In this document: piece by piece, positions 16,474 through 63,056 of the stretch
Position numbering within the stretch: position 1 is the stretch's first letter
Layout: every line of letters starts with the position of its first letter
Assembly: GCA_018433245.1 (NCBI GenBank)
Contig: JAHDRN010000019.1
Span: forward strand, 3,622 to 67,621
DNA from: Candidatus Proruminimicrobium quisquiliarum
GTDB taxonomy: Bacteria > Elusimicrobiota > Endomicrobiia > Endomicrobiales > Endomicrobiaceae
Reading direction: 5' to 3'
DNA length: 64,000 bases
The notes under the pieces: model-generated
Seen by the model: the letters and a program-made list of their open reading frames with translations, nothing else
Told to the model about the DNA's origin: nothing
Database searches by the model: none
Made by a program: the position numbers and the translations under genes

Positions 16474-17067
16474 TTATTCCCAAAAAAATATAGCTCTTTC
16501 TATTTTATCAATATATTTCAATATTGAGTATATTTTATCTATTTTTTTTACGTATTGTTTTGTTTCATTAAACGGCATTTGTTCAAAATCATACTCAACG
16601 ATAGGATTCATCTGTCTCCACTGCGTAACATTGCCGAGCCCCGCGTTATAAGAGGCAAGTATTAAATTCATATTTCCTTTAAACATCGTATTTAATATTT
16701 TATAATAAAAAACGCCGAACATTATGTTTATTTCAGGATTTAAAAGCATCTCTTTTTTAAAATTTTCCATCTGTAAATATCCCGCAATCTGTCTGCCTGT
16801 GGCCGGCATAATCTGCATAAGCCCGACTGCTCCCTTATTTGACACGGCATCCGGCGCAAAATCCGATTCAACCTTTATAATGGCTTTTACCAAAAGAGGA
16901 TCCACGTTATATTCAGCCGCGTATTTATTTATAAATTCCGAATATTTCCATGTTTTGTTGATTTTAACAAAAACATACAAAATTATAAAAAATAAAACGG
17001 CCGTTATCGCAAGCAATAATTTATTTTTATTAATTTTCACGCATATCTCCGGACATGCTGTTTGCAA
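16474..17067 (-). CDS. lytic transglycosylase (SLT domain), membrane anchored
   Basis: The SLT catalytic region ES...GLMQIMP..., here VESDFAPDAVSNKGAVGLMQIMPATG...YNAG, plus an N-terminal TM helix. The annotated start overlaps the miaB 3' end by 38 nt. Confidence 0.85.
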   Translation of the reverse strand: MQTACPEICVKINKNKLLLAITAVLFFIILYVFVKINKTWKYSEFINKYAAEYNVDPLLVKAIIKVESDFAPDAVSNKGAVGLMQIMPATGRQIAGYLQMENFKKEMLLNPEINIMFGVFYYKILNTMFKGNMNLILASYNAGLGNVTQWRQMNPIVEYDFEQMPFNETKQYVKKIDKIYSILKYIDKIERAIFFWE

Positions 17068-18283
17068 AAACTTTCGTTATTTTTACCGTAACGGTTTTTC
17101 CCGTCAGATCTTTAGCGGAATTAAAAAAAATTTTTATATTCTGGCTGTTTCTTGATTCGCATATTCCGTTTGCATAAGCGTCCACCAAAACTTTTTCCTC
17201 GGAATTTATATAATATCCGTTTAATTCTTTTGATATTTCATTTGAGCGTTCAAGCAAAACGGAATGCCTTTCTTTTTTTACCGCCGTTGAAACGTCGTCT
17301 TTAAGTTTATACGCCGATGTGTTAGGCCTTGGCGAATATTTAAAAATAAACAAACCTCCGAATTTTAAATCTTCAGCCGCGCGCAGAGTTTCTTTAAAAT
17401 CGTCGTCTGTCTCGCCCGGAAAACCTATTATAATGTCGCTTGTAATATTTATCCGCGGTATTTTATTTCTTATTTTTTCAACGAGCAGTTTATATTTGCC
17501 GTATGTGTATTTTCTGTTCATTCTGTTTAAAACGTAATCCGACGCCGACTGCATGGGCAGATGAATATATTTGCATATTTTATCGTTTGCGGCTATTTCG
17601 TCTATTAATTCGTCCGGAAAATCTTTCGGATGGTTGGTCATAAACCTGATTCTTTCAAGTCCGTTTATTAGCGAAACTTCTTTTAAAAGACCGGTAAAAT
17701 CAATATTTTTATAATTATAAGAATTTACATTCTGTCCTAAAAGTATTATTTCTTTTGCGCCGCGTTTAACGCACTTTTCGGTTTCCGCCAATATTTCGTC
17801 AACGCTCACGCTTTGTTCCGGACCTCTTACGTAAGGAACTATGCAGTAAGAGCAAAAATTTTCGCATCCCCTCATTATCGTAACGTATTCAAAGACTCCT
17901 GATTTCCTTGTTGCCTTACGAACTCCGCCTGTTTCTATGAATTTTGAAACGACGCCTGCAAATTTATCAAGTTCCTTTGCGCCCAAAACGAAATCAAGAA
18001 ATTTAAATCTGTTTTTTATGCTTTTGCCGGCATATTGCGCCATACATCCGACAACGCCGGCAATAAGTCTCGGATTTTTATCTTTTTGTTCCGAAAGCCG
18101 TCCCAGAAAAGAATACGCCTTATGTTCGGCGGAAAATCTTACCGAACATGTGTTAAGTATCACCAGATCGGCCTGTAAAACATCGTCCGCGTATTCCAAA
18201 CCCTCCGATAACAAATAATCAGTTATTTTATCGGAATCGTTAACGTTCATCTGGCAACCGATCGTTTCAACAAAAAATTTCAT
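17030..18283 (-). CDS. miaB: tRNA methylthiotransferase, MiaB family
   Basis: N-terminal GCQMNVNDSD, radical SAM CENFCSYC, C-terminal TRAM-like region. Confidence 0.85.
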   Translation of the reverse strand: MKFFVETIGCQMNVNDSDKITDYLLSEGLEYADDVLQADLVILNTCSVRFSAEHKAYSFLGRLSEQKDKNPRLIAGVVGCMAQYAGKSIKNRFKFLDFVLGAKELDKFAGVVSKFIETGGVRKATRKSGVFEYVTIMRGCENFCSYCIVPYVRGPEQSVSVDEILAETEKCVKRGAKEIILLGQNVNSYNYKNIDFTGLLKEVSLINGLERIRFMTNHPKDFPDELIDEIAANDKICKYIHLPMQSASDYVLNRMNRKYTYGKYKLLVEKIRNKIPRINITSDIIIGFPGETDDDFKETLRAAEDLKFGGLFIFKYSPRPNTSAYKLKDDVSTAVKKERHSVLLERSNEISKELNGYYINSEEKVLVDAYANGICESRNSQNIKIFFNSAKDLTGKTVTVKITKVFANSMSGDMREN

Positions 18284-49637: not shown

Positions 49638-50764
49638 ACCTCTTTTTCAGACGTATTTTTTCAATATCAATGAAAGAATATAAACATATTTTAAGAGACC
49701 CTTTTACTTTTGCCGCAGCCGTCGGCATTCCGATTCTTTTTGTAATATTTTTCGGGTTTATAATAGATCTTGATTATAAAGGCGTAAACGTCAACGTAAG
49801 AGACAACGACCAGACGGAATCGTCAAGGCGTTTTTTACAGCTTATGGGTTCAAGCTCGTATTTTAATCTTATTCCCCTGCACCAACAGTCTGAAGCGGAT
49901 AAAAAAATAAATCAAAATGATATGTCGGCCGTGTTGATAATACCGAAAGGATTCGGGCAGACCGTAAAAAAAGGAGAAGAACCGGCCCAAATGCAGCTTT
50001 TGATAGACGGAACAGATAACGCAAAAGCAGGTATCGTTACAAGCTATATAACGCTTGCTGCCGAAAAAGCGTCTGAGGTTTTATTTGATAACAACGGTAT
50101 TCAAAAATCTGCTTTAAATATCAAAACACGCTTTCTTTTTAATCCGGAACTTAACAGCAGATGGTTTATAGTGCCGGGACTGGGTACCGTTATAATAGGA
50201 CTTATAGCAATAGTTCTTACGGCTCTTACCGTTGCAAAGGAATGGGAAAACGGCTCTATGGAACTTCTTCTTGCAACGCCCGTATCGGCAACTGAAATAA
50301 TAATCGGCAAACTGATACCTTATTTTATACTTGCGCTTGCCGATATATTTATGATTTTTATATTTTCAATATTTGTTTTTGCGATACCTTTTAAAGGAAG
50401 TTTTCTGTTTTATGTTTTATCGTGCGTAATTTATATTACAGGCGCTCTGGCGCTCGGGCTTTTGATTTCTGTTATTACAAGAAAGCAGGAACAGGCTACC
50501 CAGATAGCTTTTGCCGTAGGAATTCTTCCGTCTTTTATTTTATCGGGATTTATTTTCCCGATTGAAAATATGCCTCTTTTTTTCAGGATTTTAACGGCCG
50601 TTTTTCCGCAGAGATGGTTTATGCAGATAAGCAGAAGCGTTTTTTTAAGCCCGTCGGGATTTTTTGAACTTATAATGCCGTTTTTATTTATAACATTTTT
50701 TGCTGTTTTAATGATATTTATATCAATTAAAAAATTTAAAAAAGATTTGGAAGTGACGCAATGA
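49634..50764 (+). CDS. ABC-2 type permease (YbhS/YbhR-like)
   Basis: N-terminal TM, large periplasmic loop and a C-terminal 5-TM ABC-2 domain (EWENGSMELLL). Confidence 0.85.
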   Translation: MNLFFRRIFSISMKEYKHILRDPFTFAAAVGIPILFVIFFGFIIDLDYKGVNVNVRDNDQTESSRRFLQLMGSSSYFNLIPLHQQSEADKKINQNDMSAVLIIPKGFGQTVKKGEEPAQMQLLIDGTDNAKAGIVTSYITLAAEKASEVLFDNNGIQKSALNIKTRFLFNPELNSRWFIVPGLGTVIIGLIAIVLTALTVAKEWENGSMELLLATPVSATEIIIGKLIPYFILALADIFMIFIFSIFVFAIPFKGSFLFYVLSCVIYITGALALGLLISVITRKQEQATQIAFAVGILPSFILSGFIFPIENMPLFFRILTAVFPQRWFMQISRSVFLSPSGFFELIMPFLFITFFAVLMIFISIKKFKKDLEVTQ

Positions 50765-51873
50765 GATTTACTATTTTAAAAGGTTATTTCATTAAGGAAT
50801 TTATACAAATTTTACGCGATAAAAAAATGATCGCTTTGATATTTTTTATTCCTATTATGCAGATGACTATGTTCGGGCTTGCCCTTACAAGCGAAGTAAA
50901 AAACATAGAGCTTGTAATTATCGCAAAGCCCGGCAAAATAGCAAGAGAACTTACCGCAAGAAGTATGGCGGGAGGCTGGTTTAAAAAAATAACAAATATT
51001 GACGTTTACAAAGAGTCCGACCCAGTTTCCCTTATACAAAAACATAAAGCGGAAGCCGTTTTAATTGCTCCGAAAGAAGGTTTTGAATACGCTCTTGAAA
51101 GAGGCGGTAAAGATATTCAGCTTCTTGTTGACGCAACAAATTCGCAGAGAGCCCAGCAGGTTTCAGTTTATGTAAAACAGCTTCTTTTGCAGACGGCAAG
51201 AGACAAATACGGAAAAGAAAACTTTAAAAATATGACAGACATAAAAACAAGAGTTTTGTTTAACCATTATATGAACACGGCGGATTTTATGATACCCGCT
51301 TTAATGGTAATGGCAAGTTTTATCGTTTTGATGCTTGTAAGCTCAATGAGTTTTACAAAAGAAATAGAAACAGGTACTCTTGAAAAACTTGTAGTTTCCC
51401 CCTCTTATACATACGAGATACTGTCAGGCAAAATACTGCCTTATTTTGTAATCGGTCTTCTTCTTATGACTTTTATGCTTGTTACGGGAATAGGATGGTT
51501 CGGGCTTTCTTTCAGAGGAACGATATGGCAGCTTTTGATAACAGCGATACTTTTCATAGGTTCTGCTTTATCATGCGCCGTTTTAATTTCAACTTTCGCA
51601 AAAACACAGCAGCAGGCGATGATGGGAAGCATTTTGTTAATTCTTCCGGCAATACTTCTATCGGGAATCCTTTTTCCCGTTGAAAACATTCCGCAGTCGG
51701 TAAGATGGATATGTTATCTTAACCCGATGATATATTCGGTTACAAATTTCAGAAGCATAATCCTCAAAGGCGGAGATTATCTGCTATGTCTGCAAAACTG
51801 CGCCGCATTACTGTTAATCTGCATAATATTATCGGCAGCAGCCTACAAAAACTTTAAATCTAAATTTAATTAA
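50761..51873 (+). CDS. ABC-2 type permease (YbhS/YbhR-like)
   Basis: Same architecture (EIETGTLEKLV); paralogue of the preceding gene. Confidence 0.85.
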   Translation: MRFTILKGYFIKEFIQILRDKKMIALIFFIPIMQMTMFGLALTSEVKNIELVIIAKPGKIARELTARSMAGGWFKKITNIDVYKESDPVSLIQKHKAEAVLIAPKEGFEYALERGGKDIQLLVDATNSQRAQQVSVYVKQLLLQTARDKYGKENFKNMTDIKTRVLFNHYMNTADFMIPALMVMASFIVLMLVSSMSFTKEIETGTLEKLVVSPSYTYEILSGKILPYFVIGLLLMTFMLVTGIGWFGLSFRGTIWQLLITAILFIGSALSCAVLISTFAKTQQQAMMGSILLILPAILLSGILFPVENIPQSVRWICYLNPMIYSVTNFRSIILKGGDYLLCLQNCAALLLICIILSAAAYKNFKSKFN

Positions 51874-51923
51874 AATAATTTTTAATATTGTATAATCTTA
51901 AAAAATGCGCATAAGGAGCAGGA

Positions 51924-52979
51924 ATGAAAAAATTTATTTCCGTCTTATGTTTTTTGTTTATAAACATTTTTATTTCAAATTATTCTTTAACGCAAGCGGC
52001 AGAAACAGACGCCGACAGTTTGAAGCAAACAACCGTCACTTCTTATTTGCAGAAAAAAATCACAAAGGGCAAAAATCTGATTTTCTGTTCAACAATGCAG
52101 CTTGCATGGAATGCTTTGTGCGATGATATTATAAAAGCTCCTTTGGAACTGTCGGGAACACCTGAAATTCAAACAATGCTCAATGAAAGATTAACTGGCA
52201 AAGAAGATATAGCCCCAGACGCTTACATCGCAATGGCAGGATTTAACAGAGACGGCATTGTTAAAAAAATAGACAACGCGTTATTAAATAAATTTGATAA
52301 AAAAAACGGATGCGGAATAACGCTAATGAGCCCTGAAGATATACTTGCGTATGCCTATCTGTTTAAAAAACTTGAATTTAAAAATAAATTTGAAGATCTA
52401 AACGATAATCCTATTTTTTTCAAAAATGAAACAGAAGTAGAAACTTTCGGAATAAAACAATATTCATACGAAATTGCTAAGCAGGTTAAAATACTTTATT
52501 ATAACAATGACAACGATTTTATATTAAAACTTGAGTCCAAATCTCAAAATGACGAGATAATACTTGCAAAAATAGAGCCTAAAGAAACGCTTTTATCAAC
52601 CGTTGATTATGTTTTTGAACAAATTAAAAATAAAAAAACTATTGCCATAGAAAAAGGAGATATCCTAAAAATACCAAAATTTGACTTTGATATTTTCAAA
52701 AAATATTCGGAACTAATAAACAGAGATTTTCTTAATAAAAATTTTGAAGGATACTTTATATCAGATGCATTTCAGGGAATTAAATTCAAACTTGATGAAA
52801 AAGGAGTAATCCTTGAATCATACGCGGCTATAAGAGGAGAAAAAAGCATGCCATATTTGCCGGGAACAAAACGGTTAATTTTTGACAAGCCTTTTTTATT
52901 TTGCCTTAAAGAAAAAACAGGCAAATATCCGTATTTCGTAATGTGGATTGATAACGCCGAATTAATGTTAAAAAAATAA
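51924..52979 (+). CDS. secreted serpin-like protein, copy A
   Basis: Signal peptide. Collinear serpin motifs NLIFCSTMQLAWNAL (s6B/hB), ILAYAYLFKKLEFKNKFE (s3A), ILKIPKFDFD (s2C), KLDEKGVILESYAAI (s5A/hinge) and FDKPFLFCLKEK (s4B/s5B). Confidence 0.7.
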   Translation: MKKFISVLCFLFINIFISNYSLTQAAETDADSLKQTTVTSYLQKKITKGKNLIFCSTMQLAWNALCDDIIKAPLELSGTPEIQTMLNERLTGKEDIAPDAYIAMAGFNRDGIVKKIDNALLNKFDKKNGCGITLMSPEDILAYAYLFKKLEFKNKFEDLNDNPIFFKNETEVETFGIKQYSYEIAKQVKILYYNNDNDFILKLESKSQNDEIILAKIEPKETLLSTVDYVFEQIKNKKTIAIEKGDILKIPKFDFDIFKKYSELINRDFLNKNFEGYFISDAFQGIKFKLDEKGVILESYAAIRGEKSMPYLPGTKRLIFDKPFLFCLKEKTGKYPYFVMWIDNAELMLKK

Positions 52980-52997
52980 TCTCAGCAAAAATATAAA

Positions 52998-53035
52998 AAT
53001 AATAGATACTGTTAAATTTTACAGTATCTATTATT
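52998..53035 (+). terminator. terminator hairpin after serpin A
   Basis: Perfect 15 bp inverted repeat AATAATAGATACTGT / ACAGTATCTATTATT with an 8 nt loop. Confidence 0.6.
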
Positions 53036-53127
53036 TATTATGCCTGCAAAACTGCGCCGCATTATTGCTAATCTGCATAATATTATCGGCAGCAGCCTAC
53101 AAAAACTTCAAATCCAAATTTAATTAA
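53032..53127 (+). pseudogene. relic copy of the last 31 codons plus stop of the ABC-2 permease gene
   Basis: Aligns without gaps to 51778-51873. By my count there are 8 nucleotide differences, all synonymous in the permease frame (YLLCLQNCAALLLICIILSAAAYKNFKSKFN*). No upstream coding context. Confidence 0.8.
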
Positions 53128-53176
53128 AATAATTTTAATATTGTATAATCTTAAAAAATGCGCATAAGGAGCAGAA

Positions 53177-54223
53177 ATGAAAAAATTTATTTCCGTTTTA
53201 TGTTTTTTATTTTTAAGTATTTTTATTTCAAATTATTCTTTCACTGAAGCGGCAGAATCCATTGACGCTGACAGTTTACAGCAAACAACCGTCACTCCTT
53301 ATTTGCAGAAAAAAATCACAGCAGGCAAAAATCTTGTTTATGGTGCAACATTTCAGCTTGCATGGAATGCCTTATGCGATGATATTATAAAAGTTCCTTT
53401 GCAATTATCAGGAACATCGGAAATACAAAATATGCTTAACGAGAGATTAGTCAATAAAGAAGATATTGCGGAAAATACTTGCATCGCCATGGCAGGTTTT
53501 GAAAGAAATAACATTGTTCAAAAAATAGATGAGGCTTTATTAAAAAAATTTAACAATACAAAAGGCTGCGGCATAAAATTACATAATCCCAGTGATATTC
53601 TGGCTTATGCCTATCTGTTTAAAAATCTTGAATTTGAAAATAAATTTGAAGATTTAAACTCAAATCCGATTTTTTTCAAAAATGAAACAGAAGTAGAAAC
53701 TTTCGGAATAAAACAATATTCATACGAAATTGCCAAGCAGGTTAAAATACTTTATTATAACAATGACAACGATTTTATATTAAAACTGGAATCCAAATCT
53801 CAAAATGATGAGATAATACTTGCAAAAATAGAGCCTAAAGAAATGCTTTTAACAACCGTTGATTATGTTTTTGAACAAATTAAAAATAAAAAAACTATTG
53901 CCTTAAAAAAAGGTGATATCTTAAAAATACCAAAGTTTGATTTTGATATTTTTAAAAAATACCGTGAACTAACAGGCAGAAGTTATGGCGTCTATGCTTT
54001 AGCAGGCGCCATTCAGGGAATTAAATTTAAACTTGATGAAAAAGGAGTAATCCTTGAATCATATGCAGCTATTGTGATGCAGGAAAAAAGCATATCAGTC
54101 CCGGTGGAGCCAAAACAGTTAATTTTTGACAAGCCTTTTTTATTTTGCCTTAAAGAAAAAAACGGCAAATATCCGTATTTTGTAATGTGGATTGATAACG
54201 CGGAATTAATGTTAAAAAAATAA
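53177..54223 (+). CDS. secreted serpin-like protein, copy B
   Basis: Paralogue of 51924-52979 with an identical promoter/RBS region. The central about 90 aa are nearly identical. The N-terminal half and the loop before FDKPFLF are divergent. Confidence 0.7.
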   Translation: MKKFISVLCFLFLSIFISNYSFTEAAESIDADSLQQTTVTPYLQKKITAGKNLVYGATFQLAWNALCDDIIKVPLQLSGTSEIQNMLNERLVNKEDIAENTCIAMAGFERNNIVQKIDEALLKKFNNTKGCGIKLHNPSDILAYAYLFKNLEFENKFEDLNSNPIFFKNETEVETFGIKQYSYEIAKQVKILYYNNDNDFILKLESKSQNDEIILAKIEPKEMLLTTVDYVFEQIKNKKTIALKKGDILKIPKFDFDIFKKYRELTGRSYGVYALAGAIQGIKFKLDEKGVILESYAAIVMQEKSISVPVEPKQLIFDKPFLFCLKEKNGKYPYFVMWIDNAELMLKK

Positions 54224-54246
54224 TAATTTACAAGGAGTACTTATTT

Positions 54247-54666
54247 ATGAAAAAATCAGTTTTGTTTTTATTATCTGTATTTGGATTTGTTTTTGCAGGA
54301 TGCGCTACTGTTCCAACAACTTGGGAACAAACTGTTATCAATTATCAGGCGGCGGCTCCGAAAGTAGAATTAGGAATGTCAAAACAGGAAGTAGTTGATA
54401 TACTGAACCCGACTCAAACACTATTGGCAAATACTGAAATAAAACAACCTGACAGATATATAAAAGACGGCGTTAACGTTGAAATTCTATATTACAGAAG
54501 CGGCTGGATTTCTGACAACTTAAATACCGATGACGAGTACACACCCTATGTTTTCAATAACGGAAAACTTGTCGCAATCGGATGGATGACTATCGGAGGA
54601 CCGAAAAACACATCTTCCTCCGTACCAAAGGTAAACGTCCAAAACAAAACCACTGTTATTTATTAA
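54247..54666 (+). CDS. lipoprotein (BamE/SmpA-OmlA-like or DUF3192-like)
   Basis: Lipobox FAGC. GMSKQEVVDILNP is typical of SmpA/OmlA-fold lipoproteins; family assignment tentative. Confidence 0.6.
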   Translation: MKKSVLFLLSVFGFVFAGCATVPTTWEQTVINYQAAAPKVELGMSKQEVVDILNPTQTLLANTEIKQPDRYIKDGVNVEILYYRSGWISDNLNTDDEYTPYVFNNGKLVAIGWMTIGGPKNTSSSVPKVNVQNKTTVIY

Positions 54667-54715
54667 TTTATATACTGTATGAACTCCAAATCAAAATTTA
54701 GTATAGAGAGAGGTT

Positions 54716-55225
54716 ATGATTATGAGTAATTCAAACATTCATCATTTAAAAGATAGTGAAGAAACTAGAAACAAAATTCATTATGCATATGTTTTGGTAA
54801 AAGATTACTTAACTTATAAAAAAGGTCTCGCTGAATTAAAAATAGGTGTTGGGGCATACATTTATGATTTGGACAAGCCTGCTTGTTTAAATATTAGATA
54901 TTACTCTAAGGCTTTAGAGGATGAATTTAAGAAAAAGTTATCTTTTAAGGAGTGTATGAGAGCAGAATGCAAAAAAAAAGTTTCTGATATAACTGAAGAA
55001 CATATGATATGCAGATGTGTACTAAGAGATGAATTTATAAAAATGATAACTGAAAAAGCTACTGAAAATGAATGTTTTGATTTTTTAGATAAACATCTTA
55101 TGATATGTACAATGAAAAAGGAAGAAGAAAAAAAATTACCGAAAAACAGACAAGGCTTAAAGAATTGGAAAAAATATTATGATGATGCTGGAATAAATCC
55201 ACTTCCAGCAATAAATAACAAATAA
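54716..55225 (+). CDS. hypothetical Cys-rich cytoplasmic protein, 169 aa
   Basis: ORF with a GAGAGG RBS and 8 Cys; no family recognised. AT-rich. Confidence 0.5.
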   Translation: MIMSNSNIHHLKDSEETRNKIHYAYVLVKDYLTYKKGLAELKIGVGAYIYDLDKPACLNIRYYSKALEDEFKKKLSFKECMRAECKKKVSDITEEHMICRCVLRDEFIKMITEKATENECFDFLDKHLMICTMKKEEEKKLPKNRQGLKNWKKYYDDAGINPLPAINNK

Positions 55226-55260
55226 AGAGATGTTGAGTTTTTTACTCGAATTTTATGATT

Positions 55261-55329
55261 CGCCTGTTAATCTGCATAATATTATCGGCGGTTGCCTACA
55301 AACACTTCAAATCCAAATTCAGTCAATAA
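55261..55329 (+). pseudogene. second, more diverged relic of the permease 3' end
   Basis: Encodes RLLICIILSAVAYKHFKSKFSQ* in the homologous frame. Its core TAATCTGCATAATATTATCGGC is identical to 51814-51835 and 53068-53089. Shares the TTC/TCC variants with the relic at 53032. Confidence 0.7.
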
Positions 55330-55502
55330 TGTTATTATCCTTCATTTTTTATTAAACTTCTTATTCTCAACTTTAATACATTTATTTATATTTTATTTCT
55401 TATTACTGATTTGAAAATGGTTTATTTTTTTGATAAAAATTAATAGGATACCAATAATTTTGCAATATTGTTTTAAAATAAATATAAATAAATACTAATA
55501 GT

Positions 55503-55531
55503 TTGACAATTATATATAAAATTTATAGAAT
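55503..55531 (+). promoter_or_regulatory. near-consensus sigma-70 promoter of the orphan cassette
   Basis: TTGACA (55503-55508), 17 nt spacer, TAGAAT (55526-55531). The first ATG follows only 10 nt after the -10 box. Confidence 0.55.
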
Positions 55532-55541
55532 TTGGTTGGTT

Positions 55542-55898
55542 ATGGCTAACACACAAAAAGAAAATTATTATTGGATTCCTGAATCTCTTAAGTGGACTTT
55601 CAAAATAATGAATTCACCTAATTGTTATTTGCTAATAATAATACTGGTTATCGTTTCCTTTTTAATATTAACTCTTCGAATACCTGATACCCAACTTATG
55701 TCTTTTATAAAACTAGTGCTTAATCAAAGTGTTTTCTTAGTTATTTTTATTGCAATTGAAACATTTACTATTTTTTTATGGAGAACTGATAGAGAAAATT
55801 TAAAAGCAGAAATTAAACGATTATCTGAAGAAAAAAGTAGATATATGCATAGCAATAAGAAATTACCAAAACACAATCCTAGTGGAGCAGAATTTTGA
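55542..55898 (+). CDS. small membrane protein (2 TM plus a C-terminal charged/coiled segment)
   Basis: Hydrophobic helices CYLLIIILVIVSFLILTL and VFLVIFIAIETFTIFLW, then ENLKAEIKRLSEEKSR. Start taken at ATG 55542 because the TTG at 55503 coincides with the -35 box. Confidence 0.5.
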   Translation: MANTQKENYYWIPESLKWTFKIMNSPNCYLLIIILVIVSFLILTLRIPDTQLMSFIKLVLNQSVFLVIFIAIETFTIFLWRTDRENLKAEIKRLSEEKSRYMHSNKKLPKHNPSGAEF

Positions 55899-55917
55899 TT
55901 TAATAACGGAGGAAACT

Positions 55918-56472
55918 ATGGACAATTATCAAGATGTAGTTACTATTTTAATAATAATCTTATCAGTTTCGACAAGTGCTTTTTTTATATCAAAGCTTTT
56001 GCTATGGAAAAGACAAATAGCATTTGAAAAATATTTGTTTAGGTTTTTCAAACTTAGAGATGATTTAGCATATTTAGTATTAGAAGATAAGTTGCAACAA
56101 AATAGTGATGTATATGAATTTTTAATCTTTAATATTAATAAATATATTGCAACGATTGAAGATACTGATCTCTGTAGTTTTTTAATTAAATATATTGAGA
56201 CAAATTCTGACAAAAAATATATTGATAATTTGGTTGCCATCGTTCAAAAATGCAAAAATAGCAGCAAAGAAGTTTCTATCATTATGAAGGAATTTGAAAA
56301 AATCACCAACAGTATTATTACTGACAATAGCCTTATATTTATATTCATATTTATTGGTACAAAAATATTATCAAAATTTTTCAAACATAATATCCCTTCA
56401 TTTATTTCAAAATTTAATCAACTTAGACCTATAGTGAAAGAACAAGAAAATAGAATAGCAAATTCATACTAA
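55918..56472 (+). CDS. membrane protein (N- and C-terminal TM helices flanking a soluble helical region)
   Basis: ATG 55918 with a GGAGG RBS. TM helices VVTILIIILSVSTSAFFISKLLLW and LIFIFIFIGTKIL. No family recognised. Confidence 0.55.
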   Translation: MDNYQDVVTILIIILSVSTSAFFISKLLLWKRQIAFEKYLFRFFKLRDDLAYLVLEDKLQQNSDVYEFLIFNINKYIATIEDTDLCSFLIKYIETNSDKKYIDNLVAIVQKCKNSSKEVSIIMKEFEKITNSIITDNSLIFIFIFIGTKILSKFFKHNIPSFISKFNQLRPIVKEQENRIANSY

Positions 56473-56499
56473 TTTATTACACTATAGGGGGGTATTTTA

Positions 56500-56859
56500 A
56501 TGGAAGTTACTCTTTACAATCGTTCAGGGAATCCTATTGCTTATATTGCAGATGATGCTGATAATGCTATATATATGTGGAATGGGCATGCTGTATGTTA
56601 TATTTTTGAAGATAAAATATATGGTTGGAGAGGTAAGCATATTGGCTGGTTTATAAACAATAGAATATATGACTTAAATGGTTTTCTTGTTGGATTTACA
56701 AAAAATACGTGTCCAGTTATTACTACAATACCAACCATAAAAAATATAAAATATATTAAATCTATTAAATCCGTACGCAATATAGCAACTACTAAGCCGA
56801 TTTTATCTACACAATATTCAGAATACAATTTAAAATTTTTTTTGGAACAAAATAGCTAA
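56500..56859 (+). CDS. soluble protein with four tandem beta-hairpin-like repeats (possibly the 4-fold beta flower family)
   Basis: Four repeats of [LI]Y-x3-G-x2-[IVL]-x-[YWF]: LYNRSGNPIAYI, IYMWNGHAVCYI, IYGWRGKHIGWF and IYDLNGFLVGFT. GGGGGG RBS. Family name from memory, unverified. Confidence 0.55.
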   Translation: MEVTLYNRSGNPIAYIADDADNAIYMWNGHAVCYIFEDKIYGWRGKHIGWFINNRIYDLNGFLVGFTKNTCPVITTIPTIKNIKYIKSIKSVRNIATTKPILSTQYSEYNLKFFLEQNS

Positions 56860-57090
56860 TAAAACTATATCTGCAAACTAATAACTACAAACTCTCAACA
56901 CGGTTCCTTAAATTTCGTCTATATTAATTTATCTATAACTATCTCTAATCTTACTTCTAATTAACAGCAATTCAGATTTTGTATTTTCAATACTCAATAT
57001 CTATGATTGATCTATGCGCATATTACGCTTTGAAACAAAGTTTCTTAATCCAATTTTTGAATAATATTTAATATTTTACAATATATTTTT

Positions 57091-57222
57091 GCCACGTTTA
57101 GCACGTCTATGAATGAACTGTTTTTAGTTGTAAAATTTTCAAACAGATAAAATTTTAAGTTCACTTGTCCGAAGAAAAATCCGTTTCATTATGCAGTAAG
57201 GATTTTTCAAGTTGTGAACTGT
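57091..57222. repeat. partial copy of the dispersed intergenic repeat
   Basis: GCCACGTTTAGCACGTCTATGAATGAA (57091-57118) aligns with 11497-11524, and AGGATTTTTCAAGTTGTGAACTGT (57199-57222) with 11563-11586, in the same order. Confidence 0.55.
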
Positions 57223-57271
57223 GCGACAAAAAAAACAGAAATGAATGTGCGACTTGTGGCGGGTCTTTTTG

Positions 57272-57302
57272 GTTACTTTTTAGACTCGTGATAAAAAGTA
57301 AC
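57272..57302. repeat. perfect 11 bp inverted repeat (hairpin) in an ORF-free region
   Basis: GTTACTTTTTA-9 nt-TAAAAAGTAAC. Confidence 0.6.
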
Positions 57303-57447: not shown

Positions 57448-59643
57448 CTATTTAAATTCTTCTTTGGCCAACTCCCCAATCGTCACATAATCGGTCTTCC
57501 CGTTGCCCATAAGATACATCTGTTCTATAATTTTTATTTTTTTAGGAATGAACAATTCGCTTAAACCCTGTTTTTTAAATTCGGCGCCTATTTCGCTAAA
57601 AACGGTATTCGGTCTTGTGGTATATAAAACAAGCTGCTCGCCTTTTTTGGGGTCTGGAACCGCCACTACGGCATGCTCAAAATCAGGCCATAATTTTAAA
57701 ATAGCCGTTTCAACAGCCGCAAGCGAAACCATTTCGCCCGCGATTTTTGCAAACCTCTTTGCCCTTCCTTTTATCGCTATATAACCTTCGTTATCTATTG
57801 TTACAATGTCGCCCGTATCATGCCAGCCGTCTTCAAGAGGCTGTATTACGCCGGGCTTGTCTATTTTCATATAACCTACCATTACATTTTTGCCTTTTAT
57901 AAAAAGTCTTTTTCCTTCTTTTACGCCCGGCACTTCTTCAAGCCTTGTTTCTATGCCGACAAGAGGTCTGCCGACGGTGCCGTATTTGTAATACATATTT
58001 GTGTTTACGGCTATAACCGGAGAAGTTTCGGTAACGCCGTATCCTTCCCAGATTCTTACGCCGAACGTATTAAAGAAATTTTTTGCGGTCGCTTCTTTAA
58101 GTTTTTCCGCTCCCACAACCGCTATTCTGATTGAATAAAAATCGTAAGGATGGGCAGACTTTGCGTATCCGTTTAAAAAAGTATCCGTTCCGAACATAAT
58201 CGTTGCGTTTGAATCATAAATAAGTTCGGGGATAACGCGGTAATGAAGAGGAGACGGATACATAAAAGTTTTAATTCCGCTGAGAAGCGGCAAAAGCATT
58301 CCCCCCGTCAGTCCGAATGAATGAAAAACCGGCATTGCGTTAAAAAAACTGTCGGTTATGCCGAAATCAAGAATACTGCGTATCTGAAATATGTTTGCCA
58401 TAAAATTTTCATGGCTTAAAACTACGCCTTTTGGCACGCCCTCTGAACCTGAAGTAAATAATATAACGGCAGGTTTTTTTGGGTCATGTTTTTTACCCGA
58501 TGACTTTTTATAATACCAGCCGGGAAAAAAAGATGCAAAAAGACCGGTAAGTTTATCTTTAAGTTTTATCGTTTTTGCCAAATCTTCAAGATAAATAATA
58601 TTTACGCCCTCGGCTTTCATCGCGTTTACGACGTCGTGAAGGCTTCCTTTTTCTATAAATTCCCTTGAAGTGTAAACATTTTTAATGAGCGCCGTTTTGC
58701 AGCATGAGATCATATTTTTTACGCCAGTTGAAAAATTAAGCATCGCGGGCGTCAGCCCGAACGCCTGCATTCCCAAAAATACCGCCGTGCCGGCTATGGA
58801 ATTGGGAAGCATAAAACCGACGTAATCTTCTTTTTTATTTTGTTTTGCTATAAGTTTTCCGAGTATAAAAGAAACGGTAAAAAGTTTGCCGTAATTTACG
58901 GTTTTGCGGGACATATCCTCAAGAATTATCTTGCCGCGTCCTACAAGATTTTTTGCGTCTATAAAAGAATCAAAAAGAGTCTGGTCCCAGTTTACCGAAT
59001 TATAACGCATATTCGTCATAAGATCGTATAAGTTTCTCATGGCTTCTTTTCTGCGTTCTTCGCCTTTTAAGTTTTCCGCTATTTTAAGCCTTGTGGCCGG
59101 GAAAATATTTACCGTTATTTTACTTTTCGGACGGGTTTTTAAACTTCCGCCGAAATTGGAAAACATCAGATACTGGTTGCCTTCAATGCATACCGGTATT
59201 ATCTGCGCGTCGCATTTGTCGGCTATAATGGCGGAACCCGGATAAATTTTCATAAGTCTGCCGGTCGTAGTGATACGCCCCTCCGGAAAAATTACGACTC
59301 TGTTTCCTTTTTTTACTTCGTCTATTATAGATTTTACGGCCATAGGCTGAGCAGGGTCAATCTGATAAAATTTCGCAAGATGCAAAAACGGCTTAACGTA
59401 CCACTTTTTAGCTATCAAAGGATTTATGGCAAAATGCAGGTCTTCGGAAATGTAAGACCACAGAAAAAAAGCGTCAAGAAAAGAATTATGGTTTGCTATG
59501 ATAAGAGCGTTTCCCGAAGCGTTTTTAAAATTTTCAATGCCTTTTACTTCCACTTTGAAAATATAATTAAAAATTCCTCTCAATATCATTCTGACGATAT
59601 TGACCGGAAGAATTATCTGGAATATGTTTTTTTCGGCAGCCAT
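57448..59643 (-). CDS. aas: bifunctional acyl-ACP synthetase / lysophospholipid acyltransferase (Aas-type)
   Basis: N-terminal PlsC motif (NHNSFLDA...FPEGRIT) followed by an AMP-binding domain (TSGSEGVPKGV, GYGVTET, TGDIV). At 731 aa it is similar in size to E. coli Aas. Confidence 0.85.
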   Translation of the reverse strand: MAAEKNIFQIILPVNIVRMILRGIFNYIFKVEVKGIENFKNASGNALIIANHNSFLDAFFLWSYISEDLHFAINPLIAKKWYVKPFLHLAKFYQIDPAQPMAVKSIIDEVKKGNRVVIFPEGRITTTGRLMKIYPGSAIIADKCDAQIIPVCIEGNQYLMFSNFGGSLKTRPKSKITVNIFPATRLKIAENLKGEERRKEAMRNLYDLMTNMRYNSVNWDQTLFDSFIDAKNLVGRGKIILEDMSRKTVNYGKLFTVSFILGKLIAKQNKKEDYVGFMLPNSIAGTAVFLGMQAFGLTPAMLNFSTGVKNMISCCKTALIKNVYTSREFIEKGSLHDVVNAMKAEGVNIIYLEDLAKTIKLKDKLTGLFASFFPGWYYKKSSGKKHDPKKPAVILFTSGSEGVPKGVVLSHENFMANIFQIRSILDFGITDSFFNAMPVFHSFGLTGGMLLPLLSGIKTFMYPSPLHYRVIPELIYDSNATIMFGTDTFLNGYAKSAHPYDFYSIRIAVVGAEKLKEATAKNFFNTFGVRIWEGYGVTETSPVIAVNTNMYYKYGTVGRPLVGIETRLEEVPGVKEGKRLFIKGKNVMVGYMKIDKPGVIQPLEDGWHDTGDIVTIDNEGYIAIKGRAKRFAKIAGEMVSLAAVETAILKLWPDFEHAVVAVPDPKKGEQLVLYTTRPNTVFSEIGAEFKKQGLSELFIPKKIKIIEQMYLMGNGKTDYVTIGELAKEEFK

Positions 59644-62600
59644 TATTTTAAAATCCCTTTTGCGATTTCTATAAGTTTATTGTAATCCGTTTTTCCCGTT
59701 CCGACTATCGGTATATCGGCAAGAGTTTCAACCCTGCATGGAACGGTCAATTCCGCAAGCATTTTATCCTCAAATACTTTTTTAAGTTCCGAACACGTTA
59801 TGTTTGAAGCAGTGGTAAAAAGAACAATCTGTTTTCTTGCCCTGCTGTCGGCAATAACAACGATTGCATGTTTGCTTTGAGGATATGCTGCAGATATAAG
59901 AGTTTCAAGCTCGGTTAATGAAATATTTATACAGTTCATTCTTATGAATCTTTTTGTCGTGTCTTTTACAAAAACAAAGCCGTCTTCGTCCATATTTACG
60001 ATATCGCCGGTATCATACCAGCCGTCGGCAAGCGTTTTTGGAACCGATAAAACTCCGTCTTTTATATAACCGCTCATTACGTTTTCGCCTTTTACGTAAA
60101 GGCGGTTCCCTTCAAGATGAGGGGCTTCAACAAGCTTATACTCCATTGACGGCAAAAATCTTCCTACGCTGCCCGTTTTGAAATATATCGGCGTATTAAC
60201 TGCGACCGTGGAAGAAGTCTCCGTTGAGCCGTAAGCTTCAAAAACTCTTATGCCGAACCCGTCAGCCCATAAGTTTGCCGTTTCTTCCCTTAATTTTTCA
60301 ACTCCGGCAACCACAAACCTTATAAAATAAAAATCATACGGATGAGCCGATTTGGCGTATCCGTTTAAAAACGTGTCGGTTCCGAATATTACCGTTGAAT
60401 TTGTTTCGTAAACAAGCTCCGGCACTATTTTATAATGAAGAGGAGAATGGTACATAAAAACTTTTATTCCTCTTAAAAGAGGCAAAAACATACCGCCCAC
60501 TATTCCGAACGAGTGAAATATAGGCATTGTATTAAAGAAACTGTCCATAAGCCCGAAATCAAGAACGCTTGAAATCTGGTTTCTGTTTGTCTGTATATTT
60601 TTATGCGTAAGAGCTACCGCTTTCGGAGTGCCTTCCGCGCCTGAAGTATACAGAACGACGGCCGTTTTGGAATGATCTATATTTTTGTTTATTTTTTTAT
60701 AGTAATAAGACGGGCAATACGACATCATATAAGCAAAAAATTTGTCGGAAACCTTTAATTTTTTTTTCAAATCTTCAATATAAATTACATTTATGCCGTT
60801 ATCGGAAAGTTTTACGGCGAGCTCTTCAAGAGCCGACTCTTTTATAAATGCTTTTGACGTAAAAATATTTTTTGCGCCCGTATTATTTATATATTCTATT
60901 ATGCTTCCTACGCTGTTTGCATAATTAATCATACAAGGAATTCTGTTTACGGCCGATAAAGAAAAGAACAATTCAACGGTAGTTTTTGAATTCGGAAGCA
61001 TCAGGCCTATATATTCATTTTCTTTTGTTTTTCTTCGGATAAGTTTTGAAAATGCAAAAATGGCGCCTATCAGAGAACCAAGCGATATGGGCGTTCTGTT
61101 TATATCGTCAAGGATTTCTTTATTTCTGCCGACAAGCTTTACGGCCTTTATAAGAGAATCAAATACGGTATCTGTAGTTAAACTGCTTGCAAACTTCATT
61201 TCGCACATAATATCGTAAAGTTTTGTGACGGCAATCTGTCTTCTCTGTCCGTCCGGTATTTCACCGTCAATCCCGAGCTTTCTGGGCGGTAATACAGTAA
61301 GCGTAATTTTTCTCTGCCTTCTGCTTTTTACTTTGCTTCCGAAATACGAGAAATCCGAATATTGGCTGCCTTCTATACAAACCGGAAGTATATCGGCATT
61401 ACTTTTATCGGCTATAACGGCAGGACCGGGATAAATTTTCATAAGACCGCCGGTTGTAGTGATTCTTCCTTCCGGAAATATCGCCACTATTCCGCCTTTT
61501 TTAAGCTCGTCAACTATGGATTTTACGACCATAGGATTAGTAGGATCAATAGCAAAATACTTTATAAGTTTTAAAAACGGTTTTACCAAAATTTTGTTTA
61601 TACTGTCGGTATTAATTGCAAATGAAACTTTTTCTCCGAAAGTTGTTGATAAAATAATAGCATCCAATAAAGAAGTGTGGTTTGCAATAATTAAAGTTCC
61701 GCCTTTACATTTTTCAAAATTTTCAAATCCCTTTACGTTAACGGAATAAAAAAGAGTCAAAAATCTTTTTGTAATCGTTCTTAAAAGATGCGCCGGAAGA
61801 AGAATTGAAATATAAACGGCAACCGCGATGTTAAACAGCGCGATAAAGGCAAGAGTCGTGGGAATAGGAAGATTACCCAAAAACAAAATACATATAACGG
61901 CGGCGGCAAGCATAAAAAACACGTTTACAAAATTATTTACGGCAAGAACGCGCCCTCTTATCTTTCTGTTTGCCACAACCTGAAGCATTGTCATAAGAGG
62001 AACGATATATAAACCGCCGAAAACGGAAAATGCAAACAAATCAAATATTATTCTTATCCCCGAAAAAGTGGTGAATATTTGTTTTATCTGTATTGAAGTT
62101 TCCAGATTTACGGCATTTGCACATAAAGCCAAATCCACAATAAAAACTGTCATAAAAACAACGCTTATAGGAATGTGCTTTAATGTAAGTTCGCTTTTTA
62201 AAAGGAAATAACTCAGTAATGCTCCTACGGCTATACCTGCGGCAAACAATAAAATTAAAAACATATATATTGATTCGTTTCCGTGAAGAGCAACTTGTGC
62301 AAAAGCAGGCATTTGCGATACCAGTATAACCCCGATGAACCAAAACCATGATATTCCTAAAATACAAAGATAAACATCTCTGCTCTGTTTAAGAAAAGAT
62401 ATGTTTTCTACGGCTGCTTTAAAAATATTTTTTGAAATTTCCAGAGGTTTCTGTTGCGGTGCAGGTTTTAATTCCGGCAGAAAAAAAGCCGCAACAATCC
62501 CCAAAACCGCAATTGCGGCAAGAATTATAAAAAGAAGCGTCCTGTCTGACTGGTAAACGGCGCTTCCGGCTATTACTCCGGATATGATAGACAAGTATGT

Positions 62601-63056
62601 TCCGGCCTGTATCAAACTGTTTGCGCATATAAGTTCTTCATTTTCAAGAATTTCCGGAAGTATGCTGAATTTTACAGGGCTTAAAACGGCCGAAAGAATC
62701 CCGAGCAGGAACAACACAAAAAGAAGAATCCATATATTTTTAAAAACAAAACCCCAGAACGCCAAAAGCAAAACGGCAAACTGGAGAATTTTAACGATTT
62801 TCACTATAACGTCTTTTCTGTATTTATCGGTTATTTCGCCGGCTGTTGCCGAAAATAACAAAAACGGCAGCATAAAAACTGCCACCATAAGAGAAACAAT
62901 CAGGGATCTGCTTTTTTCGCTCAAAGAAATAAGGTCAAAAACTACAAAAGTCGCAAAAGCCGACCTGAAAAAATTATCGTTAAAAATACCGAGGAACTGC
63001 GCGGCATAAAGAGAAAAAAATGAACGGCTGAAAAAGACTTTAAGCAAATTTTTCAT
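59643..63056 (-). CDS. triple fusion: MFS lysophospholipid transporter (LplT-like) plus PlsC acyltransferase plus acyl-ACP synthetase
   Basis: About 400 aa of MFS TM helices, then NHTSLLDA...FPEGRIT, then TSGAEGTPKAV...GYGSTET...TGDIV. Its stop overlaps the start of the downstream aas paralogue (TAATG). Confidence 0.85.
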   Translation of the reverse strand: MKNLLKVFFSRSFFSLYAAQFLGIFNDNFFRSAFATFVVFDLISLSEKSRSLIVSLMVAVFMLPFLLFSATAGEITDKYRKDVIVKIVKILQFAVLLLAFWGFVFKNIWILLFVLFLLGILSAVLSPVKFSILPEILENEELICANSLIQAGTYLSIISGVIAGSAVYQSDRTLLFIILAAIAVLGIVAAFFLPELKPAPQQKPLEISKNIFKAAVENISFLKQSRDVYLCILGISWFWFIGVILVSQMPAFAQVALHGNESIYMFLILLFAAGIAVGALLSYFLLKSELTLKHIPISVVFMTVFIVDLALCANAVNLETSIQIKQIFTTFSGIRIIFDLFAFSVFGGLYIVPLMTMLQVVANRKIRGRVLAVNNFVNVFFMLAAAVICILFLGNLPIPTTLAFIALFNIAVAVYISILLPAHLLRTITKRFLTLFYSVNVKGFENFEKCKGGTLIIANHTSLLDAIILSTTFGEKVSFAINTDSINKILVKPFLKLIKYFAIDPTNPMVVKSIVDELKKGGIVAIFPEGRITTTGGLMKIYPGPAVIADKSNADILPVCIEGSQYSDFSYFGSKVKSRRQRKITLTVLPPRKLGIDGEIPDGQRRQIAVTKLYDIMCEMKFASSLTTDTVFDSLIKAVKLVGRNKEILDDINRTPISLGSLIGAIFAFSKLIRRKTKENEYIGLMLPNSKTTVELFFSLSAVNRIPCMINYANSVGSIIEYINNTGAKNIFTSKAFIKESALEELAVKLSDNGINVIYIEDLKKKLKVSDKFFAYMMSYCPSYYYKKINKNIDHSKTAVVLYTSGAEGTPKAVALTHKNIQTNRNQISSVLDFGLMDSFFNTMPIFHSFGIVGGMFLPLLRGIKVFMYHSPLHYKIVPELVYETNSTVIFGTDTFLNGYAKSAHPYDFYFIRFVVAGVEKLREETANLWADGFGIRVFEAYGSTETSSTVAVNTPIYFKTGSVGRFLPSMEYKLVEAPHLEGNRLYVKGENVMSGYIKDGVLSVPKTLADGWYDTGDIVNMDEDGFVFVKDTTKRFIRMNCINISLTELETLISAAYPQSKHAIVVIADSRARKQIVLFTTASNITCSELKKVFEDKMLAELTVPCRVETLADIPIVGTGKTDYNKLIEIAKGILK

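Follow-up and report, generated by a model that had tools for sequence, protein, structure and literature searches.

The core defence hotspots (cDHS) of Pseudomonas aeruginosa and the minimal mobile elements (MMEs) of Neisseria reportedly carry variable, defence-rich whole-gene cargo between conserved genes without mobility genes, and their exchange is said to proceed by homologous recombination in the flanks. ICESt1 and ICESt3 at the fda gene of Streptococcus thermophilus, tandem accretions of integrative and conjugative elements (ICEs) with cis-mobilizable elements (CIMEs), and islands at tRNA 3' ends depend on a tyrosine integrase and are bounded by att repeats of fixed length; integron arrays, and the Xer-dependent pdif modules and integrative mobile elements exploiting Xer (IMEX), consist of small blocks separated by a short recurring site, the Xer elements having no recombinase of their own. 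In the tandem lpl paralogue cluster of Staphylococcus aureus, recombination at conserved stretches reshuffles secreted and lipoprotein paralogues (Tsuru & Kobayashi 2008, PMC2568036). Orphan arrays behind type VI secretion system (T6SS) effector, Rhs and contact-dependent inhibition (CDI) toxin genes, among them the orphan immunity arrays of Vibrio T6SS loci, have been described under the name 'C-terminal displacement', with homology-facilitated illegitimate recombination and ordinary homologous recombination as the proposed mechanism (Kirchberger et al. 2017, PMC5361080). Here we describe an island in a 64,000-nt stretch of Candidatus Proruminimicrobium quisquiliarum (Elusimicrobiota; Endomicrobiaceae; contig JAHDRN010000019.1, positions 3,622 to 67,621 of the forward strand; hereafter the window), in which the end of an ABC-2 permease gene, permB, recurs as short relics between blocks of unrelated genes.

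As in the T6SS, Rhs and CDI arrays, new modules stand beside an upstream gene that is itself conserved, the 3' ends they displaced persist downstream together with their partner genes, the orphans resemble functional alleles of other strains, and no integrase appears to be involved. The anchor differs in being a housekeeping-type ABC-2 permease and not a polymorphic toxin; only its last 20-100 nt are stranded, the relic carries a promoter-like region, the cargo (serpin-like, lipoprotein and defence genes) is unrelated to the anchor, and the host belongs to the Elusimicrobiota. With the cDHS and MMEs the island shares core flanks, variable and defence-rich content and a lack of detected mobility genes, but here relics record stacking events, and we know of no cDHS or MME description with repeated relics of a flanking gene end at internal block boundaries. 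Direct repeats of a gene 3' end that bound successive blocks and leave the gene intact are also found in ICE/CIME accretion; unlike there, no integrase was found, and repeat lengths and block ends vary. The small, often single-gene blocks split by a recurring short site recall integron and pdif arrays, whereas no intI, attC-like or dif-like sequence (by a dif consensus that may not suit this phylum) is present, and the site is the end of a neighbouring gene and of variable length. The repeats of S. aureus lpl lie inside paralogous open reading frames (ORFs), while that of the window is a fragment of a non-paralogous upstream gene. We interpret the interval between permB and the acyltransferase gene aas731, at a probability of roughly 0.55, as an integrase-free recombination hotspot, in which homologous recombination in the flanks is accompanied by occasional illegitimate joins that stack one block beside another.

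permB belongs to an exporter operon (TetR, TolC, HlyD, two ATPases and two permeases), and its orthologues in related loci are 79-97% identical; a search with this permease assigned the window to the Endomicrobiaceae of the Elusimicrobiota. A first-pass annotation of the window had noticed that the end of this gene recurs twice downstream and had proposed a site of serial cargo accretion. The features of this part of the island are:

50761..51873, + strand: permB, second ABC-2 permease gene and left conserved flank of the island (Pfam ABC2_membrane_3, E 1.9e-37)
51778..51873, + strand: copy 1, the functional permB end (31 final codons plus stop)
51874..51923, + strand: P1, promoter-like intergenic region: AT palindrome right behind the stop, TTTTAATATTGTATAAT (51880-51896), serpin 5' leader plus ribosome-binding site (RBS)
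51924..52979, + strand: serA, encoding a secreted serpin-like protein 95% identical to the single serpin of locus L165
52980..53029, + strand: spacer X, a unique 50 nt after serA, at the junction of the tandem units
53030..53127, + strand: relic 2 (copy 2), the final ~97 nt of a permease allele, with an intact peptide
53128..53176, + strand: P2, a duplicate of P1 with one substitution and one indel over 50 nt
53177..54223, + strand: serB, a serpin-like paralogue or allele, mosaic, with 81% amino acid identity to serA
54247..54666, + strand: lipoprotein gene (Pfam DUF3192, E 1e-8)
54682..54702, + strand: relic 4, degenerate (TCCAAATCAAAATTTAGT...), between the lipoprotein gene and orf169
54716..55225, + strand: orf169, a cargo gene
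55264..55329, + strand: relic 3 (copy 3), permease-end positions -62 to +3

Copies 1 (51778-51873) and 2 (53032-53127) differ at 8 of 96 nt, in every case by a transition, and both encode YLLCLQNCAALLLICIILSAAAYKNFKSKFN*; all eight differences are synonymous and none is non-synonymous. The first-pass annotation had given this count together with seven codon changes, and our recount bore it out. It had also held the pattern to be unexpected for an in-situ duplicate decaying neutrally. Simulations agree: when eight random substitutions were introduced, the peptide remained unchanged in 0 of 300,000 trials at kappa 1, with a frequency rising from 1e-5 (kappa 2) through 1.7e-4 (kappa 10) to 2.8e-4 when only transitions were allowed, so that the chance was at most 2.8e-4 and neutral in-situ decay of copy 2 is rejected by its substitution pattern. 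Three of the differences lie within the first 12 nt, at the edge of the homology and in the 3' arm of a hairpin described below; without these three the count becomes 4 of 4 synonymous, which is much weaker (P ~0.01-0.03 by our own estimate). When the eight differences were polarised by eye against the ends of other lineages, about three appeared to be derived on copy 1 and four to five on copy 2. Changes thus fall on both branches, which rules out a simple in-situ duplicate with changes only on the selected copy.

The divergence between the two copies amounts to a dS of 0.56 with a dN of 0. This dS is just higher than that of the whole gene between the window and its closest relatives (0.21-0.51), but inside the range of the last 31 codons, which in most close pairs are more diverged than the gene as a whole (dS 0.65-1.26 vs 0.21-0.51); the functional ends of the window and of locus L161, for example, differ at 7 nt, 6 of them synonymous. 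These values support the earlier proposal that copy 2 is a gene end which diverged under purifying selection in another lineage. The further proposal, that it arrived with incoming DNA, is one of two possibilities: the relic may be a fragment brought in by the incoming DNA, or it may be the displaced old end of the resident.

That the gene end is duplicated was seen correctly from the start, but the homology is not limited to it. Copy 1 and copy 2 each stand at the head of one unit of a head-to-tail repeat, with units of 1.25 kb (51776-52980 vs 53030-54224) that comprise the gene end, an intergenic region of ~50 nt and a whole serpin-like gene up to its stop codon. The 17-mer TTTTAATATTGTATAAT of the intergenic region is found, exactly or with 1-2 mismatches, upstream of serpin, lipoprotein and HNH genes in 10 lineages, and we infer that the P1/P2 region drives the serpin and lipoprotein genes as their promoter. 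A sigma-70 consensus scan of the window did not pick up this shared region; its best -35 candidate, TTAAAA across the stop codon, is separated from the -10 element by 15 nt, outside the 16-18 nt that the scanner allowed.

The two units are not followed by the same sequence, as those of a simple tandem duplication would be, and they are mosaic. Spacer X follows unit 1 only, while unit 2 goes directly into the RBS of the lipoprotein gene, and the 23-nt junction between serB and that gene is of the L167/L162 type. Within unit 2, relic 2, P2 and the middle of the serpin gene are nearest to unit 1 of the same genome (90-98%), 53210-53329 is nearest to L165, and 53450-53629 is nearest to L161, L162 or L167; serB is accordingly a patchwork of segments nearest to unit 1 and of segments nearest to the L165, L161, L162 and L167 alleles, with a loop region (54050-54109) that is unique. 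At the junction stands a hairpin (52997-53036), a loopless 20-bp palindrome with 95% complementarity whose 3' arm enters relic 2. Its sequence was found in no other locus compared, being unique to the window genome, and it may have helped to form the junction between unit 1 and relic 2. On the minus strand this hairpin is terminator-like. As read from the sequences, the joint between spacer X and relic 2 has a 5-nt overlap (ATTAT) and the joints at position -25 have A-runs, neither being significant at 30% GC. The frame of relic 2 is open from 52966 to 53127, and its translation by frameshifting, as a C-terminal membrane anchor of serA, was also considered; this was judged unlikely because a strong hairpin lies between the two, a start codon is absent and long relics behind the serpin gene are missing from the relatives.

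Copy 3 matches the best functional end at 59 of 66 nt. In frame it reads LLICIILSAVAYKHFKSKFSQ*, the TAA having become CAA with a stop one codon later. Both the copy and its read-through had been recognised in the first-pass annotation, in which its amino acid changes were taken as non-synonymous alterations; they are N to H and N to S, which give the residues of the functional permeases in L165, L002, L003 and L173, and the 30 nt preceding the stop are identical to the functional end of L165. The interval of 38 nt between the orf169 stop and relic 3, with the same left boundary of the relic, is shared by the window, L172, L173-176 and L169, even though identity among their orf169 proteins is just 62-80%; copy 3 was therefore not made in the window genome. 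Relic 3 is accordingly ancient and was inherited together with orf169. Behind the relic, L172 and L173 carry the very sequence found directly 3' of the functional permease gene of L002, so that relic and following sequence represent a displaced original locus, whereas in the window unrelated AT-rich DNA begins at the old stop codon. Relic 4 matches positions -23 to -3 of the functional end at 19 of 21 nt, which is weak alone, but it lies at a block boundary. The partition into three relic-bounded blocks proposed earlier is thus too simple: the region contains tandem units, a fourth relic splits the second block, and orf169 with copy 3 forms an old module.

The distribution of relics was examined with the 21-nt terminal motif of permB (51853-51873 in the window), (T)TCAAATCCAAGTTTAGTTAA, which reappears where blocks meet. 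Across ~250 kb searched with ≤2 mismatches, it recurred on the + strand only, inside the island only and at block boundaries; AATCTGCATAATATTATCGG is an alternative search pattern for further relic loci. Besides the functional end there are three relics in the window, three in L004, two in L165, two in L082 (of which the one before the lipoprotein gene is more degenerate and was placed by eye), one in L162, one each in L172, L173-176 and L169, and a weak one in L161; L001, L166, L167, L002, L003, L005 and L083-85 have none in the available DNA. The left ends of the relics lie at -97, -67, -62 and -52, in a cluster at about -25, and at -15. To their right follows either the promoter-like region with a 'native' gene (serpin, lipoprotein or HNH) or unrelated DNA 0-20 nt past the old stop. 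The ends of the blocks next to the motif, such as the Znu-like and lipoprotein blocks, differ from genome to genome, and these variable relic and block ends therefore argue against one fixed att site. The relics resemble the functional permease alleles of other lineages; that of L162, for instance, is in frame, ends in TGA where the gene has TAA, and matches alleles of the L167/L004 type. In L004 the isochorismatase ORF (16584-17126) extends into a permease relic (17097-17122) and has gained a 9-residue tail (…KISNPSLVK) relative to L001 and L082, a small case of a relic co-opted into coding sequence.

The right-hand part of the island in the window contains:

55542..56859, + strand: AT-rich cassette (23-28% GC) of three genes, encoding a protein with two transmembrane segments (2TM), one with a single segment (1TM) and a 4-fold beta-flower protein
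57102..57302, + strand: E250, a structured-RNA candidate of ~200 nt at the right edge of the island
57448..59643, - strand: aas731, with acyltransferase and AMP-binding domains, the right conserved flank

The interval was compared among about 20 related Endomicrobiaceae loci from genomes, metagenomes and Logan, ENA and JGI assemblies, the L-numbers being locus labels. The exporter operon is conserved across them, and the interval downstream is hypervariable, with different cargo in nearly every lineage. permB lies on the left at all loci; on the right, aas731 is found in the window, L001, L004, L082, L162 and L169, and the L002/L173 group has E250 together with a GATase-EamA-CrcB operon there. 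The orthologues of aas731 beside the island in L001, L004, L082 and L162 are 90.6-97.8% identical. Downstream of permB the loci contain:

L001: lipoprotein, isochorismatase, Shedu, EcoRI-type methylase, GmrSD-like HNH, Schlafen/AlbA
L004: E250, Znu-like block, serpin, lipoprotein, isochorismatase, three genes on the reverse strand, SocA among them
L082: the order of L004 minus the serpin, plus a DUF4238 protein
L161: lipoprotein followed by serpin and DUF2779
L162: serpin pair in tandem, lipoprotein, isochorismatase, DpnII system, E250, HNH, E250
L165, L167: serpin, lipoprotein
L173-176: DUF2779, orf169 homologue, DUF4268, restriction-modification systems
L002, L003, L084, L085: TdeIII restriction-modification, kinase + Abi_C, nSTAND-Mrr, CAP12-TIR

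Type I systems add to the restriction-modification cargo of the islands, and the serpin-like gene is present in 0, 1 or 2 copies. The island is a defence-rich hypervariable hotspot. A comparison of the cargo downstream of the orthologous permease had been proposed as the test of a hotspot, with 0-3 relics as the supporting outcome, and this is the range observed per locus, together with variable cargo. The absence of integrase and transposase genes noted earlier extends beyond the window: no integrase, transposase, excisionase, relaxase or phage families occur among the Pfam matches of the scanned ORFs in the window and about 20 related islands, a negative that covers island ORFs with Pfam matches and ±10 kb of flank. 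A tRNA-linked island was ruled out by tRNA and Rfam scans of the island, both of which were empty.

A Znu-like block is found in three lineages that are otherwise 79-96% related (L004 11598-14784, L082 8142-11332, L005 3777-6970). It stands directly after permB on the reverse strand and encodes an ABC-3 permease, ZnuA, a 351-aa protein without Pfam match and a 96-aa protein, with no ATPase gene; the L004 and L082 copies are bracketed by permease-end motifs.

Signs of homologous recombination are found in permB itself. At ~51270 the identity to L001 falls from ~95% to 72-78% and that to L165 from 96-97% to 85-90%, steps which place recombination breakpoints inside permB and give it a mosaic 3' end. 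L165 (permease-H-serpin-H-lipoprotein) and L001 (permease-H-lipoprotein) differ as a deletion between the H repeats predicts. In L162 a block of relic, promoter and HNH gene lies between two E250 copies, an arrangement expected if a whole allelic island, from permease end to E250, had been appended and not exchanged.

From these observations we infer a mechanism of joining, its direction and a route of DNA entry. Cargo would mostly be exchanged by ordinary homologous recombination with crossovers in the left flank (permB) and the right flank (E250 or aas), the DNA probably entering by natural transformation. Occasionally one end of an exchange would be an illegitimate, microhomology-type join within the final ~100 nt of permB. 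The incoming block would then come to lie next to its predecessor without displacing it, and the 3' piece of a permease allele would remain stranded between them. Since the serpin/lipoprotein promoter starts at the permease stop codon, relic and promoter head each native block, and these repeats (45-150 nt) could afterwards provide secondary crossover points at which single blocks are lost, duplicated, reordered or replaced. In the window, relic 2 and the functional end would come from two different lineages, in which they diverged as alleles under purifying selection before being linked in tandem along with two serpin alleles.

Several points weigh against this account. All independent junctions lie ≤100 nt from the stop, and the left ends of six to eight short relics gather at about -25, a clustering not expected of random joins; we assume that it reflects the closeness of the homology's end and microhomology in the A-run CAAAAAC. 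Homology-facilitated illegitimate recombination has been reported as orders of magnitude rarer than homologous recombination (PMC5361080), and with joins so rare and yet at least six junctions, the account has to presume selection for retaining both cargos. Among the recovered loci there was no donor allele identical to copy 2, its nearest relative being copy 1 of the same genome. Finally, for the competence that the account would require in this lineage, the evidence is indirect: related Endomicrobium genomes carry and express the competence genes comEC, dprA and recA (PMC8809381).

The clustering of short relics could also reflect a site-specific cassette array, in which a recombinase encoded elsewhere would act on a site of ~30-36 nt at the permease stop (~-28 to +9), blocks would integrate and excise like integron cassettes, pdif modules or IMEX elements, and each event would regenerate the site. 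The proposed site has dyad symmetry, with an inverted repeat (AAACTT-7nt-AAGTTT) and a palindrome (TTAAAATA-T-TATTTTAA), although a 6-bp inverted repeat is not significant in AT-rich coding DNA. Sites and blocks alternate in a single orientation throughout, the short relics are alike in extent (-25/-29 to 0/+9) while their neighbours differ and some lack a promoter on the right, the block order of L161 is reversed (lipoprotein then serpin), and a missing cis integrase is what Xer-dependent elements would show; the longer relics (-97, -67, -52), however, are continuously homologous far past any core, and the ends of the Znu and lipoprotein blocks are imprecise between genomes. The start of foreign DNA 0-20 nt past the stop fits such a site, but needs none, because selection on permB would also place the beginning of heterology at the stop codon. 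No dif-like match was found in 10 loci at ≤3 mismatches with a consensus that may not be that of this phylum, nor was there a viral contig with the motif plus flanking similarity. A peak of cumulative GC skew near 56.5 kb was examined as a possible replication terminus with dif and rejected as unsupported, as the skew over the whole window changes sign several times, as gene orientation would produce, and no dif-like site was found; as for integrons, an intI gene is missing and, judged by eye, the GTTRRRY core is lacking from the motif. Recombination at a dedicated site of this kind is the main alternative but, in our view, unlikely. The more specific proposal that the ~30-nt stop-codon site serves a host recombinase, that the island is an integron- or pdif-like array without linked integrase, and that E250 might belong to its machinery or regulation, appears quite improbable; we know of no integrase-unlinked cassette array of this kind in the phylum. 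Decayed integrative elements of the phage, ICE or CIME type, whose attP mimicked the permease 3' end and which integrated serially before their integrases were lost, would yield direct repeats of a gene 3' end around cargo, the classic att pattern, with repeat lengths varying as among element families and motif copies flanking the Znu-like block. That about 20 islands carry no integrase, excisionase, relaxase or phage gene, that blocks are as small as one gene (orf169, serpin), and that the repeats are not constant in length nor the block ends precise, makes them very improbable. A phage attP was rejected, since the 18 motif matches in IMG/VR reduce to four redundant groups in unrelated coding DNA without flank similarity and are attributed to chance. 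Of the two mechanisms offered by the first-pass annotation, homology-driven exchange at a conserved flank therefore fits better than a decayed integrative element.

The tandem unit of the window invites a more local explanation, an in-situ duplication of 1.25 kb (permease -97 to serpin end) followed by allelic replacement, in which overwriting of the functional end and/or the units by foreign alleles produced the synonymous-only differences and no relic was imported. Copies 1 and 2 do head a head-to-tail unit, relic 2, P2 and the serpin middle are nearest to unit 1 as given above, the serpin gene has been duplicated independently in L162 without a relic, and the permB 3' end appears itself to be a recombination mosaic. 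Against it, spacer X is not repeated after serB, so that the repeat falls short of a clean tandem duplication, some segments of unit 2 are nearer to alleles of other lineages than to unit 1, and relics 3 and 4, like the relics before unrelated cargo in other genomes, are left unexplained. As an account of the whole this is distinctly unlikely, but it overlaps heavily with the hotspot model of flank recombination and stacking joins, both requiring inter-lineage recombination and one illegitimate junction, and the tandem unit may have begun as a local duplication that was later overwritten. An assembly artefact, by which two strains in the metagenome were joined into a chimeric serpin region, must be considered for a contig from a metagenome-assembled genome whose serpin 3' ends share long exact repeats at which an assembler could switch path; Logan contig L168 indeed breaks inside the serpin 3' repeat. 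The junction of spacer X with relic 2, however, shares no long k-mer with any permease allele, so that reads must span it, and the copies are 5-20% diverged. The Logan assembly of SRR13787004, made with a different assembler from possibly the same reads, is 100% identical over 54132-57190, including relics 3 and 4; comparable relic arrays recur in assemblies from several independent projects, among them a complete chromosome and a contig of 1.9 Mb. A chimera is hardly credible in the light of these data.

Returning to the cargo genes, the serpin-like proteins match Pfam Serpin below the gathering score (19-20 bits vs 27). A fold search was used for serA because a PDB sequence search returned no matches: its AlphaFold model has a pLDDT of 90.8, and its top PDB fold matches are all serpins (E 1.6e-9, TM 0.35-0.5). 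The serpin-like alleles are strongly mosaic between lineages. Their most variable stretch coincides with a low-confidence loop of the model at residues ~310-315, and in the predicted structure this loop may correspond to the reactive-centre loop. The serpin pair of L162 (10001-12148) arose by an independent duplication; just a 24-nt RBS spacer, with no permease relic, separates its copies. Searches for identical proteins matched no record for permB, serA, serB (P0009) or orf169, and matched L168 for the lipoprotein.

Homologues of orf169 were found in Endomicrobiaceae only, and every recovered locus places them in this island, normally within 14 nt after a DUF2779/Cas4-like nuclease gene (L173 8475-10570; L169 3-979). 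The orf169 of the window is without this partner, whose place is occupied by the degenerate permease relic. The first two genes of the AT-rich cassette match the 2TM-TIR (E 1.3e-6) and 1TM-TIR (E 8.6e-8) models of PADLOC, names which we take to denote a candidate 2TM-1TM-TIR defence system, and its third gene matches Pfam Bflower (PF21784, E 3e-29). The region 55542-56859 is thus a candidate defence cassette, and the beta-flower gene in the TIR position, if the names are so read, suggests a variant with a swapped effector. Next to aas731 lies a second Aas-like gene (59643-63056, - strand; 1137 aa) with a long hydrophobic N-terminal extension; both have acyltransferase and AMP-binding domains, and with ~46% identity across the part they have in common they make up a conserved tandem pair at the right flank of the island.

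E250, at the right edge, was found at the following further positions:

L001: 17465-17663
L004: 11335-11532
L082: 7853-8051 and 14876-15074
L084: 13946-14142
L085: 5994-6195
L162: 15829-16025 and 17068-17264
L169: 8724-8919
L173: 15817-16015

It is seen in this island only, beside aas, right after permB, between blocks, or preceding a GATase-EamA-CrcB-DUF190 operon. The element is conserved and covaries strongly: in the proposed structure 97.3% of cells are paired, compared with 40-61% in slid controls, 22 of 44 pairs are altered on both sides, and 0 of 500 shuffles reached the observed score. The G-U pairs point to the + strand, and Rfam gave no match. Judged by this pairing pattern, E250 is a candidate new structured RNA; it forms the right-hand boundary of the island.

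Defence islands often lie at hotspots without mobile-element genes, and how cargo enters and piles up there has largely been inferred. In this island the stranded permease ends provide a readable footprint, according to which blocks were stacked and not just swapped, and the relics show that the stacked pieces derive from functional loci of other lineages; the repeats suggest that the island is split into independently replaceable units. The process is already known from other bacteria, and no new mechanism would be revealed unless the site-specific explanation were true. For the uncultured and little-studied Endomicrobiaceae, the locus documents gene flow, and it supplies a candidate new structured RNA and a candidate variant 2TM-1TM defence cassette.

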